64,000 nt of DNA. It comes from an uncultured Candidatus Rokubacteria bacterium (GTDB lineage: Bacteria; Methylomirabilota; Methylomirabilia; Rokubacteriales; CSP1-6). Each line of letters begins with the position of its first letter. The stretch's first letter is position 1. The stretch lies in NCBI GenBank assembly GCA_963762145.1, contig CAVXJS010000021.1, positions 448,001 through 512,000 on the forward strand. Direction: 5' to 3'. Positions 10,210 to 17,514 of this stretch are shown here, in pieces. A program made the translations under genes and the position numbers. The notes below the pieces were generated by a model that saw only the letters and a program-made list of their open reading frames with translations, did no database searches and was not told where the DNA came from.

Positions 10210-10737
10210 CTAGTGCCCCTCGAACCCGAGCCATGCCTCGATCTGCTCCACCAGCCGATCGCAGCGCTCGTCGAGCTGCGCGGCGGTCAGGTTGGCAATG
10301 GGATGCGGCATGTCGAGAAACGGGTAGCCCGGCTTGCCCCAGCTCTCGGCCATCGCCTTCCCGGTATTGCGGAACGGGGTGGTGACGATGGCGATGGCCG
10401 GCACCCCTTGCTCCTCCATCAGGATCGCGTCGAGCACACTGCTCGAGCTGCACGACCCTCAGTCGCCGATGCCGGAGATGACCAGGTCGCACTGCGCGCG
10501 GAGCGCCTTGACCGCGCCCTCATCGACCTCGTGACTGGCCGAGCGCTTGCGATTCCGGAACGTGACCGTCATCTGGTGGCGCCGGCCCAGCCGCTCGGCC
10601 AGCTTCTCGAGGATGGGGCTGGCGTTGAACTTGGTGTTCTCCACCAGGCCGAGGCGCAGGCCCCGGGGGCTCGCGGGCCGGGGCGCCAGCTTGATCGCGC
10701 GCTCCACCGGCTTCGAGGTCGGATCGAAGAGCTTCAT
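10210..10737 (-). CDS. UGSC-motif selenoprotein (Sec at the in-frame UGA 10459-10461), 175 aa
   Basis: A single frame reads MKLFDPTS...LVISGIGD-UGA-GSCSSSSVLDAILMEEQGVPAIAIVTTPF...HPIANL. The UxxC redox motif spans the UGA, and a SECIS-like hairpin follows. The ORF track splits it into 10459.. and 10210..10437. Confidence 0.88.
10422..10458 (-). promoter_or_regulatory. Bacterial SECIS element
   Basis: mRNA after UGA: GGGUCGUG-CAGC-UCGAGCA-GUG-UGCUCGA-CGCGAUCC. It forms a 7-bp upper stem with a GU-starting apical loop 20 nt after UGA, plus an 8-bp lower stem. Confidence 0.8.
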
Positions 10738-11780
10738 GCGGTGCCTCCTTGGTTCGGTATGTCGACGCGTGTCGTGATGCTGCGGGTCCACTTGGTCCCC
10801 CATCCCGGCAGGCACGCGGACCAGCTCCCCGCCCGGCCACCCGCGAACGCGATCAGGATGTCCTCGGGCCGCTCGAAGCGGTAGCGCCAGGTCGTCTCGT
10901 CCTCCGGGGTCACCGCGCCGGGCAGGCGCGCGCCCCGCTTGTAGTCGGCCACCGAGCGGCGCGTGCGCTCCATCAGGAAGCGCTGCACGTCGAGCCGGCT
11001 CCAGCCCGCCTTCTGCAGCACCTCCTGGTGCTCGCCCGCGAACACGATCAGCGTCTCGTTGAAGCCGAGCAGGTTCGACGTGCCCACGTTGCCGAGCGCG
11101 TCCGCGAAGCAGTACAGCAGCGGCTCCGGCTCCGCGGCCAGGTGGTTGTAGACCTGGTAGAGGCTGTTCGACGCGATCAGGGTCACCGCGCTGTCCCCGC
11201 GCCGCAGGCCGCGCGAGACGTGCAGGGGCTCCCACGGATGATCCTCCTCGTGCTCCGCGAAGCAGAAGGAGTACTTGCCGGGGTTGCCGAGGGTGGCGCG
11301 GTCGAGCAGGCCGGGCTTCGTGTTCATCACGTTCATCATGATGAGGCGCACCGCGCGGCCGATCGTCGCGTTGGGCCGGTGACCCTGGCCGAAGGCGTTG
11401 TTGCCGCTGTTGATCCCGAGCCGCGAGGCGATCGGCCCGTTGACGACCAGGGCCATCGCGGAGCCGCCGGTGCTGCTGGCCGGGCCGTGATAGGCGAAGG
11501 CGGGAGCGCAGAGGCTTCGCACCGCGGCCACCACCACCGGCATGTACTCGGGCCGGCAGCCCGCCATCACCGCGTTGATCGCGGCCTTCTCCGCGCTGAC
11601 CACCGCGTTGCGGCCGGTGATCGCGCCCAGCTCCTCGGAGCCGTCGAGCCCCGCCGCGGCCAGCATTGCCGCGATGGAGGCGTCCGACGGCGGCACCACC
11701 GGCAGGCCGTCGGTCCAGCCCGCCTCGTAGTACGCCTCGATCAGCGCGGCGGGATCCGCCGCCTCGTCGATGTCGCTCAT
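10734..11780 (-). CDS. Conserved hypothetical protein, usual partner of UGSC-family proteins
   Basis: WTDGLPVVPP, AINAVMAGCRPEY, NATIGRAVRL and GNPGKY..CFAE; stop overlaps the selenoprotein start (ATGA). Confidence 0.8.
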   Translation of the reverse strand: MSDIDEAADPAALIEAYYEAGWTDGLPVVPPSDASIAAMLAAAGLDGSEELGAITGRNAVVSAEKAAINAVMAGCRPEYMPVVVAAVRSLCAPAFAYHGPASSTGGSAMALVVNGPIASRLGINSGNNAFGQGHRPNATIGRAVRLIMMNVMNTKPGLLDRATLGNPGKYSFCFAEHEEDHPWEPLHVSRGLRRGDSAVTLIASNSLYQVYNHLAAEPEPLLYCFADALGNVGTSNLLGFNETLIVFAGEHQEVLQKAGWSRLDVQRFLMERTRRSVADYKRGARLPGAVTPEDETTWRYRFERPEDILIAFAGGRAGSWSACLPGWGTKWTRSITTRVDIPNQGGTA

Positions 11781-11812
11781 CGCGCGCGCCTCTCCGCTCC
11801 CCGCCTCACGGC

Positions 11813-11857
11813 CGCCCGCTTCTCGATCGCCCGCTTCTCGATCGCCCGCTTCTCAAT
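11813..11857. repeat. 15-bp tandem repeat x3 (CGCCCGCTTCTCGAT)
   Basis: Copies at 11813, 11828 and 11843 (last copy ...CAAT contains the IclR stop). Confidence 0.9.
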
Positions 11858-14704: not shown

Positions 14705-14796
14705 AGTCGGCCTCCCGGGGCCGAACGTTAGCCCGGGCCGCGCCGTCAGTCAATGCGGCTATTTGCGGTGACGGCTTTGCTAGTATGAGCGAGGGC

Positions 14797-16362
14797 ATGG
14801 CCACGCTGACCGACCACATCACCTATGCGGACGCCCAGCGGCTCTGCTCGCCCGCCCGGCTCTGGGAGCTCTTCGACGGCGACCGGCAGCGCATGAACAT
14901 CGCGCACGAGTGCATCGACCGGCATCCGGCGGATCGGGTCGCGGTGCGCCTCGTCCACTCGCGCGAGCCGGCGGCCACGACGAGGCCTTCACCTTCGGCC
15001 GGCTCGCCGCCGCGTCGGCCCGCTTCGCCCACTACCTGCCGATCGGCGGCGTCGAGCCGGGCGACCGCGTCGGCCATCATGCTGGAGCCGTCGCTCGCCT
15101 TCTACGCCGGCGCTGTTCGGCGCGATGAAGCGCGGGGCCATCGCGGTGCCGCTCTTCACGCTCTTCGGCCCCGACGGGCTGCGCCTGCGCATCGACGACT
15201 GCGCGCCGCGGCTGCTGCTGTGTCCCCGCGCAGGCCGGCATCGCGCGACGGCCCGGGCTCGCCACCGTCGTCGCCGACGACCTGTTCCTCGCCGCGCTCG
15301 CGCAGTACCCCGACGCTACGCGCCGACACGCGCGGCCGACGATCTCGCGGTATTCCAGTACACCTCGGGCACGACCCGGGAGCTGCCGGCCGCGGTGCAG
15401 CCACAGCCACCGCTCGCATCGTCACGCTCATGGTCGCCGCGCTCTACGGCACCGGGATCCGCCCGGGCGATCGAGTTCTTCTGCCCCTCGTCGCCCGCGT
15501 GGGGTCACGGTCTCTGGCACGGCACGCTCGGGCCGCTCGCGCTGGGCGTCACCACCGGCGCCTTCGCGGGCAAGTTCGACGCCGACCGCCTGCTGCGCGC
15601 GCTCGCCGACCACGCGATCACCAATCTCTCGGCCGCCGCGACGCACTACCGCATGATGAAGAGCGCGGGCACCGCCGACCGCTACCGCTACGCGATCCGC
15701 AAGCTCTCGTTCACCGGCGAGCCCATCGACGAGGCCACCCGCGTCTTCGTGGAGGCCACCTTCGGCACGCCGGTGTGCAGCATGTACGGCACCACCGAGG
15801 TCGGCGTGATCCTCGCGTCAACTATCCGGGCGCGCCGGACTTCGCGGTGAAGCCGGGCTCGCTCGGCAAGCCGGTGCCCGGCGTGGAGGTGGAGGTGCAG
15901 CGGCCGGACGGCACGCGCTGCGGCCCCGACGAGGCGGGCGAGATCCTGGTCAAGCGCCGCGACGGCTGGTTCCCGACGAAGGACCGCGGCTGGACCGACG
16001 CGGACGGCTACTTCTTCCACGGCGGACGCGCCGACGACGTCATCATCTCGGCCGGCTGGACGATCAGCGCGGTGGAGGTCGAGGGCGCGCTGCTCAAGCA
16101 CGCCGACGTCCGCGAAGCGGCGGTGATCGGAGTGCCCGATCCCCTGCGCGGCCTCGTGGTCAAGGCCTTCATCGTGAGCCCGCGGCCCGGCGACGACGCC
16201 TTCGCGCGCGAGCTCCAGGAATGGACGCGCACCCGGCTCGCCCAGCACGAGTACCCGCGCCGGGTCGAGTTCGTGGCCGAGCTGCCCAAGACGCCCGCCG
16301 GCAAGGTGAATCGCAAGGTGCTCCGCGAGCGCGAGGCCGGCGCCTCCGTTCCCACGTCCTAG
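14797..16362 (+). CDS. AMP-binding acyl-CoA synthetase (many frameshifts)
   Basis: [29 protein letters not shown] and [16 protein letters not shown] before ATG 14797 (alternative start 14785). Confidence 0.85.
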
Positions 16363-16374
16363 GAGGGCGAGTAC

Positions 16375-17514
16375 ATGGCGGCCCCAACCCAGCAGCTCTT
16401 TCCCAAGATCACCCAGCAGGGCCTCGACGACCTGCGCCGCCGCATCGGGGTGCCCATCACGGACACGCTCGAGCCGTGGTGCCACGAGGCCACCCGCGAC
16501 AACATCCGCCACTACGCCCACGGCATCGGTGACGACAACCCGCTCTGGTGCGACCCGGCCTACGCGGCGCGCACGCGCCACCGCGGGATCATCGCGCTGC
16601 CGAGCTTCCTCTTCGCGACGAGCCGCATCATCTCGGGCTACGTGGGCGGGCTCTCGGGCGTGCACGCGATGTGGGCGGGCGCGGACTGGACCTGGCACCA
16701 GCCGGCGCGGCGCAACGACGAGATCTCGACCGAGGCGTGGCTCAAGGACCTGATCGAGCACCAGACGCGCTTCGCGGGCCGGTCGGTGCAGCAGATCTAC
16801 CACGTGAAGTTCCGCAACCAGAAGGGCGAGCTGCTCGCCGAGGCGGACAGCTGGTGCTTCCGCACCGAGCGCGATCACGCGCGCGAGCAGGGCTCCAAGT
16901 ACGCGGAGGTGAAGAGCCGCCCGCTCCGCCGCTACACCGACGAGGAGCTCGCCGAGGTGTATCGCCTCTACGCGGCCGAGGACGTGCGCGGCGCCACCCC
17001 GCGCTACTGGCACGACGTGACCGTCGGCGAGGCGCTGCCGAGGATGGCGAAGGGGCCGATGACGGTGACCGGCTTCATCGCCTACGCGCAGGGCTGGGGC
17101 GGTCTCTACATCCGCGCCAACAAGCTCAACTGGAGGCAGATCACCAAGCACTCCGGGCTCGGCATCAAGAACCGCTTCGGCATCCCGGACTGCCCGGAGC
17201 GCGTGCACTGGGAGCACGAGTTCGCCACCGCGGTGGGCGCGCCCGGCGCCTACGACTACGGCCCGGAGCGCTGCTCCTGGCTGACCCATCACCTGACCAA
17301 CTGGATGGGCGACGACGGCTTCCTCCGTCGCGCGCACTGCAAGATCCGCCGCCACAATCCGGAGGGCGACTACCTGATCATCGAGGGCCGCGTCACCGGC
17401 AAGCGCGTGGAGGACGGCCGGCACCTGGTGGACATCGAGCAGGAAGCGCGCAACCAGGACGGCGAGCTCTCGGTGGTGGGCGGCGGCGTGGTCGAGCTGC
17501 CCGCGCGCGCATGA
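16375..17514 (+). CDS. Double hot-dog MaoC-like acyl dehydratase
   Basis: IRHYAHGIGDDNPLW and a second hot-dog domain (GAYDYGPER...WMGDDGFL); SD GGAGG. Confidence 0.8.
   Translation: MAAPTQQLFPKITQQGLDDLRRRIGVPITDTLEPWCHEATRDNIRHYAHGIGDDNPLWCDPAYAARTRHRGIIALPSFLFATSRIISGYVGGLSGVHAMWAGADWTWHQPARRNDEISTEAWLKDLIEHQTRFAGRSVQQIYHVKFRNQKGELLAEADSWCFRTERDHAREQGSKYAEVKSRPLRRYTDEELAEVYRLYAAEDVRGATPRYWHDVTVGEALPRMAKGPMTVTGFIAYAQGWGGLYIRANKLNWRQITKHSGLGIKNRFGIPDCPERVHWEHEFATAVGAPGAYDYGPERCSWLTHHLTNWMGDDGFLRRAHCKIRRHNPEGDYLIIEGRVTGKRVEDGRHLVDIEQEARNQDGELSVVGGGVVELPARA

Follow-up and report, generated by a model that had tools for sequence, protein, structure and literature searches.

Among the closest described systems to the pair of proteins considered here are the glycine and proline reductases with their selenoprotein-B subunits, GrdB and PrdB. 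The selenocysteine (Sec) of C. difficile PrdB is U151, and its attack on proline is described in Fig. 1 of the same work (PMC11229817). GrdB is defined by a U/CxxCxxC pattern, and grd clusters carry trxB and trxA (PMC6778437). The UGSC family of selenoproteins, with 255 sequences, was the fifth most numerous in the Global Ocean Sampling (GOS) survey and ranked first in five of its seven non-marine samples; that 2008 paper guesses at a thioredoxin-like fold and already shows, in Fig. S1A, a fusion of UGSC with a domain called Unknown_1 (PMC2398784). In a 2026 review, UGSC still stands among the uncharacterised proteins, with no function given (PMC13188914). Here, a UGSC selenoprotein and the partner protein encoded next to it are described from a window of 64,000 nucleotides, the whole stretch analysed, of an uncultured Candidatus Rokubacteria bacterium (contig CAVXJS010000021.1, positions 448,001 to 512,000). 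Belief and doubt are about evenly balanced on our favoured reading, in which the two proteins form a two-subunit, thioredoxin-dependent reductase that is GrdB/PrdB-like, has an unrelated and apparently non-pyruvoyl partner, and acts by a chemistry and on a class of substrates that we infer. On the best reading of its occurrence, the pair has been redeployed in various clusters for the catabolism of organic acids and organosulfur compounds.

The window UGSC scores 141.3 bits against NF041046 (cutoff 125), in a match that runs across the in-frame UGA, and 185.9 bits against PF24696 (cutoff 25), and the family motif U/C-G-S-C is present as U93-G-S-C96. The UGA aligns to Cys in homologues, with conservation on both sides, and the hairpin that follows it, which resembles a bacterial selenocysteine insertion sequence (SECIS), folds with z-scores of -3.3 (42 nt), -2.3 (52 nt), and -1.3 (62 nt). 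Relatives were taken as the best 80 of at least 614 GTDB stretches matching the partner (39-74% identity), and are hence a sample. A UGA is found at the same site in 65 of these 80 loci; counted over their 72 full UGSC domains, UGA occupies the site in 68 and Cys in four. SECIS-like hairpins recur in the Sec-form loci, and UGA sites fold better than Cys sites (mean z -1.67, n=50, vs -0.36, n=10; p = 0.01), in a comparison whose search pattern missed some sites and included one false site (L062, minus strand). Because the NF041046 score lies above its cutoff, the hairpin is present, and relatives carry a UGA at the same site, UGSC is a genuine selenoprotein, with Sec above chance. SelB is present in another Methylomirabilota locus (L016). 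A search of the PDB with the UGSC sequence returned spurious matches only.

The initial annotation had proposed that the two genes encode a two-subunit redox enzyme, and the pairing bears this out. In 71 of the 80 loci a UGSC match is found close to the partner, 72 of 76 UGSC matches are co-directional with a partner and within 300 nt of it, and among 150 diverse partner relatives, 28 are single chains that also contain a UGSC domain. The partner itself matches no Pfam or NCBIfam family, although its own family comprises 4959 clusters at 50% identity; its conserved residues are D24, C75, T104, R135, N137, R142, N150, C173, E176, W183, H187, and H251. Around AVMAGC it aligns to Unknown_1 of Zhang and Gladyshev 2008, an alignment by which it is identified as the Unknown_1 domain. 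The window UGSC passes both cutoffs of its family, and no function or partner family was found for the published UGSC/Unknown_1 system in the literature searched. The earlier description of the locus as a possible first lead for the UGSC family overlooks the fusion published in 2008 (PMC2398784). A PDB sequence search with the partner gave 0 matches, and when 105 partner members were compared with family models only fused domains were matched, with no match to PrdA or GrdE. The closest named partner sequences, among the matches listed, belong to Methylomirabilota, and the nearest neighbours in the partner tree are one Methylomirabilota locus and one Binatia locus.

Several architectures occur within the partner family. 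Tandem partner duplications were found in 8 of the 150 diverse relatives, and a thioredoxin/AhpC-like N-terminus in 8. Two to three partner genes surround one UGSC, or occur together with tandem fusions, in L088, L089, L094, L096, and L015; proteins P0123-P0125, P0128, P0140, P0147, P0157, and P0262 belong to the same multi-partner or tandem group. Two unlike copies of the partner may function together as a dimer. In P0171, the partner is fused to an FtrB-family domain, and in P0126, P0149, P0222, P0253, P0257, and P0262 it is joined to a small CxxC domain that contains CAxC and may be NifU-like. UGSC-partner fusions adjoin aconitase X and DUF126 genes on Sporomusa and Vibrio plasmids (L087, L090).

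Partner and UGSC are predicted to form a heterodimer. For the natural Cys-form pair of L022, used as a stand-in for the window pair, the predicted complex scored 0.75 against 0.00 for the best control; the mark applied to this score was reached by 116 of 157 solved pairs and by 2 of 215 mismatched pairs. Separate runs agree in at least 88% of contacts, and the predicted local distance difference test score of the partner is at least 86. In the model, UGSC would contact the partner through its N-terminal arm and the equivalents of U93-S95, S98-S99, and F122, and the partner would contact UGSC through its N-terminus, the PVVPP region, the T104 loop, and the 146-161 region. Since the interface includes C97-G98-S99, equivalent to U93-S95, the Sec-site loop is placed at the interface. 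The initial annotation had suggested complex prediction to see whether Sec/Cys lie near a conserved Cys of the partner; the interface residues named include neither Cys75 nor Cys173, which leaves these two uncertain.

The model of UGSC consists of five alternating strand-helix (beta-alpha) units with U93-x-x-C96 at the beta3-alpha3 turn, and its best fold matches are flavodoxin-like; a flavodoxin-like fold is accordingly what is predicted. No thioredoxin-fold and no PrdB or GrdB entry is among the fold matches listed, an absence that excludes neither. At the sequence level, the PrdB model TIGR04483 is matched, weakly, by 52 of 70 UGSC members, and the GrdB model TIGR01917 by 32 of 70, with a best E-value of 1.7e-4 over 115 residues aligned to GrdB 303-407. 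Residues 77-121 of P0002 align with equal length to positions 132-176 of the PrdB profile, which places U93 at about 148. PrdB sequences in the GOS supplement show, by eye, the same spacing from Sec to Glu15 and to I/V19-P20, and the U/CxxCxxC pattern is present in 45 of the 72 UGSC domains. UGSC appears to share with PrdB and GrdB/F/H the placing of UxxC at a strand-helix turn and in matching register, and like them it has a second subunit and thioredoxin genes nearby. Despite these likenesses, several differences exist. UGSC has 175 amino acids, whereas the two models span 238 and 431 positions; its partner matches neither PrdA nor GrdE, and grdA, grdC, grdD, and prdA are absent from the annotated neighbours; and the UGSC pair is found in soil, aquatic, and halophilic organisms. 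The Mmp7/McrC-like domain of the methyl-coenzyme M reductase (MCR) activation complex (8s7v, whose chain H we infer from its size to be Mmp7) and CheY-like folds also resemble the UGSC model, but at about 10% identity and tied with many unrelated proteins.

Linkage to thioredoxin is clearest on plasmids, for which 18 of 24 records were sampled (one of them unannotated; two further Paracoccus and four further Neorhizobium records were left out). TrxB or TrxB-like genes occur in seven of these 18 loci, with one further partial case, and five are operon-like. About 0.8 would be expected, and P is about 2e-4 for six independent cases, with background densities that derive from few listed plasmids and are rough. 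All seven TrxB-linked copies are Cys forms. Cultured environmental strains have trxB-containing Cys-form operons; Cys-form operons occur in Arthrobacter sp. ERGS1:01 (trxB-trxA-partner-UGSC), Roseovarius sp. THAF8, and Variovorax sp. SRS16. In addition, 18 of the 80 loci encode partners with a CxxC thioredoxin-like domain fused at the N-terminus.

In the favoured reading, a GrdB/PrdB-like thioredoxin-dependent reductase, UGSC is likely the catalytic subunit. Its N-terminal arm would anchor on the partner, and the T104 loop of the partner would close over the Sec site. The selenolate would lie in a pocket lined by the invariant residues N34, K36, N38, K64, T119, and H145 at the strand ends, and would attack a small anionic substrate (a hetero-substituted carboxylic acid or its coenzyme A (CoA) ester) at an activated carbon or sulfur, with expulsion of a C-S, C-N, or C-O leaving group. 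The adduct would then be resolved by Cys96, perhaps with partner Cys75 or Cys173 as a relay, to yield the reduced product and a Se-S bond, which thioredoxin and TrxB would re-reduce at the expense of NADPH. Paralogues would probably serve different substrates, and the window pair would plausibly be co-regulated with the class III CoA-transferase (CaiB) encoded nearby, which would activate either substrate or product. Tool results underlie the pairing, the Sec, the fold class, and the link to a reductant. The fold of UGSC, the PrdB/GrdB register, and the thioredoxin linkage are new, whereas the pairing had been noted before; together, the PrdB/GrdB link and the thioredoxin linkage turn an "unknown" into a directly assayable function, and the CoA cluster of the window offers one local hint on the substrate.

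A number of observations weigh against this reading. The window copy reads UxxCxxS and thus misses the third Cys of the UxxCxxC found in GrdB/F/H. Scores against the PrdB and GrdB models (TIGR04483, TIGR01917, TIGR01918) are far below cutoff (13.3 vs 300 bits for the window protein, 20.6 vs 602 for the best member). CheD is matched by 39 of 70 UGSC members through a shared short motif, and weak PrdB/GrdB matches can therefore be motif-driven as well; kinship with CheD itself was rejected, the matches spanning at most about 50 residues around the motif. Pfam PF07355 is not matched by UGSC, and an Atlas search yielded no usable non-UGSC family or neighbour. The predicted complex is that of a divergent stand-in pair, built on alignments made in this analysis. 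Nine of the 80 loci are without a UGSC match, and while four of these end at a contig edge, five have full flanks. The thioredoxin-like fusion is confined to one clade, represents a single event, and is matched only weakly by Pfam; a TrxB-type gene is found in only one of the 80 GTDB loci, and none in the window. The closeness of the pocket residues is deduced from topology. The literature searched, with most subscription papers outside the search, held nothing that links UGSC to PrdB/GrdB or to a pathway.

A broader claim is more tentative, and we hold it to be doubtful: UGSC and its partner may constitute a third, very widespread branch of glycine/proline-reductase selenoprotein-B chemistry in non-fermenting soil, aquatic, and halophilic microbes, in which the place of the pyruvoyl subunit is taken by a partner of unclassified fold, and thioredoxin drives the cleavage of C-S, C-N, or C-O bonds in substituted organic acids or their CoA esters. 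If true, one of the most abundant bacterial selenoproteins still uncharacterised would gain a function.

In the window, the pair forms part of the following arrangement (positions are those of the window).

10210-10737, minus strand: UGSC selenoprotein, 175 amino acids, with U93-G-S-C96 (NF041046, PF24696)
10461-10459, minus strand: in-frame TGA, codon 93, read as Sec93
10420-10458, minus strand: bacterial SECIS-like hairpin directly 3′ of the UGA, assessed by folding z-score
10734-11780, minus strand: partner of 348 amino acids, with the motifs WTDGLPVVPP and AGC75
11853-12638, minus strand: IclR-family regulator (PF01614 and PF09339)
12629-12695, strand not assigned: candidate divergent control region, with a sigma70-like promoter and a palindrome
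12655-13896, plus strand: CaiB, class III CoA-transferase, with about four frameshifts and an uncertain start
about 13943-14704, minus strand: short-chain dehydrogenase/reductase (SDR), frameshifted, convergent with CaiB
14785-16362, plus strand: acyl-CoA ligase (MbcS/acetate-CoA ligase-like), with many frameshifts, opening a separate transcription unit
16375-17514, plus strand: double hot-dog dehydratase-like protein, intact, its stop overlapping the namZ start

As had been annotated initially, the IclR, partner, and UGSC genes are co-directional, the last two overlap by ATGA at 10734-10737, and IclR is divergent from CaiB, with 16 bp between its ATG (12638) and the first CaiB ATG (12655). 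The IclR start MVSR/MVSS is present in 8 of the 11 closest homologues. IclR lies 72 bp upstream of the partner, and the interval includes, at 11813-11852 between the IclR stop and the partner start, three repeat copies with 15-nt spacing. The only sigma70-like promoter found in 9200-17600 (one found vs a shuffle mean of 0.4) is at 12629-12656 on the plus strand; it overlaps the ATG at 12655, and the true CaiB start is therefore probably further downstream. A perfect 16-bp palindrome at 12680-12695 is a candidate IclR operator. The identities given earlier to CaiB, SDR, ligase, and hot-dog protein all stand, but the four do not form one unit: the SDR, on the minus strand, converges on CaiB and diverges from the ligase, which rules out a single operon from CaiB to the hot-dog gene. 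The hot-dog and namZ genes overlap by ATGA at 17511-17514, so that ligase, hot-dog, namZ, MFS transporter, and nagZ genes make up one tight plus-strand run. CaiB, SDR, and ligase each carry several frameshifts, whereas partner, UGSC, IclR, and hot-dog genes are intact. These frameshifts stem from assembly error or decay, and assembly error is likely because codon-position GC remains high across the affected genes. Dense frameshifts in otherwise normal genes, at about 13050-15850 and also at 6420-9216, point to poor consensus or decay.

The initial annotation had placed the pair in a conserved, IclR-controlled pathway of acyl-CoA catabolism, and the survey of neighbourhoods does not sustain this. 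Genes were called in the 80 loci and in the first 25 kb of the window (1145 in all) and clustered, and 263 were annotated (127 representatives of multi-locus clusters and 136 near singletons, at most 2 kb away). A dedicated step in such a pathway, together with CaiB, SDR, ligase, and hot-dog dehydratase, would agree with the co-directional IclR, partner, and UGSC genes, between which no terminator was found, and with the divergent promoter and palindrome. The window CaiB also groups (100/99) with the UGSC-linked CaiBs of L038, L074, and L086, in a tree that held only CaiBs linked to UGSC pairs. Some acyl-CoA gene is present in 39 of 80 loci, FlK in 10, and a thiolase directly downstream in five loci of one clade. 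However, acyl-CoA genes do not distinguish near from far positions (p = 0.12, or 0.33 without singleton labels), and CaiB, found in 14 of 80 loci, has a flat density of 0.17, 0.16, 0.24, 0.14, and 0.11 per 10 kb with rising distance. CaiB is missing from the flanks of all 15 other members of the window's partner clade of 16, several of whose contigs are short, and as a label on the partner tree it requires 12 changes against 14.1 when shuffled (37 of 500). Linked CaiBs are polyphyletic, and a count of five among the 18 plasmid loci is close to expectation (1.2-3.5). IclR is present at 2 of the 80 loci; no more than 11 IclR clusters reach 70% identity, against partner matches that, among the 120 listed, are all at least 74% identical, and no co-location of close IclR and partner homologues was seen, in what is a weak test. 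Together with the split of the locus by the SDR orientation, this renders a conserved CoA pathway distinctly unlikely: the IclR and CoA genes are local companions of the window pair and are not conserved. What survives of the proposal is that a CaiB divergent from or near the pair recurs in unrelated taxa (L030, L032, L037, L065, L084, and L089). The same layout of an IclR or LysR regulator with a divergent CaiB is seen in Roseovarius pTHAF8_b (CaiB, LysR, partner, UGSC, trxB), L065, and L030, although the regulator differs in family and the CaiB in subfamily from case to case, and the closest relatives do not show this layout.

A general thiol/disulfide, sulfoxide, or adduct-repair reductase, serving redox housekeeping rather than catabolic C-X cleavage, would account for the TrxB/TrxA linkage, the thioredoxin-, AhpC-, and FtrB-type fusions, the AhpD-like selenoprotein upstream in L030, and the DsbA-like neighbours in three loci. 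It is nonetheless unlikely, given that solute transporters, lyases, and dehydrogenases controlled by LysR or IclR make up most of the neighbours, that divergent paralogues are numerous in the family and L008, L010, L011, and L055 each hold two pairs, and that the invariant Lys, Asn, and His suggest a small-molecule pocket. A metal or Fe-S enzyme, either a hydro-lyase or an activator, with U93, C96, and partner C75/C173 or His as ligands, is brought to mind by the literature on the MCR activation complex (PMC12176620). This is very unlikely. The comparison of UGSC with the Mmp7/McrC-like domain gave no evidence of a cluster. A selenium or sulfur carrier or transferase would fit selA/selB genes in six of 80 loci, TauE in three, and DsrE, TusA, and cysteine desulfurase in Paracoccus. 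Yet selenoprotein genes commonly cluster with sel genes, and in haloarchaea and on plasmids the module is retained in Cys form with no sel genes flanking it, which makes a carrier highly improbable. The remaining neighbours of the pair are TRAP, TTT, and ABC transporters, lyases, amidohydrolases, luciferase-like monooxygenases, and scattered sulfur genes.

Individual neighbourhoods show further features. The layout closest to that of the window is found in L030, where an AhpD-related selenoprotein (NF041238; L030:1780-2892) lies between IclR and partner, with CaiB divergent. Natrialba asiatica (L074) and a Natrinema zhouii plasmid (L086) share a near-identical CaiB in a syntenic cluster with an adenylosuccinate-lyase-family gene, which suggests recent transfer; L086 also encodes a short phosphosulfolactate synthase. 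Immediately downstream of the pair in L029 and L073 come NuoE/NuoF-like and formate dehydrogenase genes, and selB is close by.

Within the window, an Rfam scan of 9000-19000 gave no match, and a tRNA search of the whole window found none. Peptidoglycan-recycling genes lie on both flanks of the locus, with murQ (9288-10193, minus strand) following UGSC after a 16-bp gap and namZ, MFS transporter, and nagZ genes at 17511-21371 on the plus strand, and the locus may be an insertion between the two sets. Any chemical link to murQ and namZ was discarded, as murQ clustered with no gene of the 80 loci. Farther away, a protein of 984 amino acids (27894-30848) weakly matches the TPR-CHAT protease Csx29 at its C-terminus (E 1e-15, with a score well under the cutoff), and at 43714-47264 a PaaK-like CoA ligase separates split methylmalonyl-CoA mutase-like genes.

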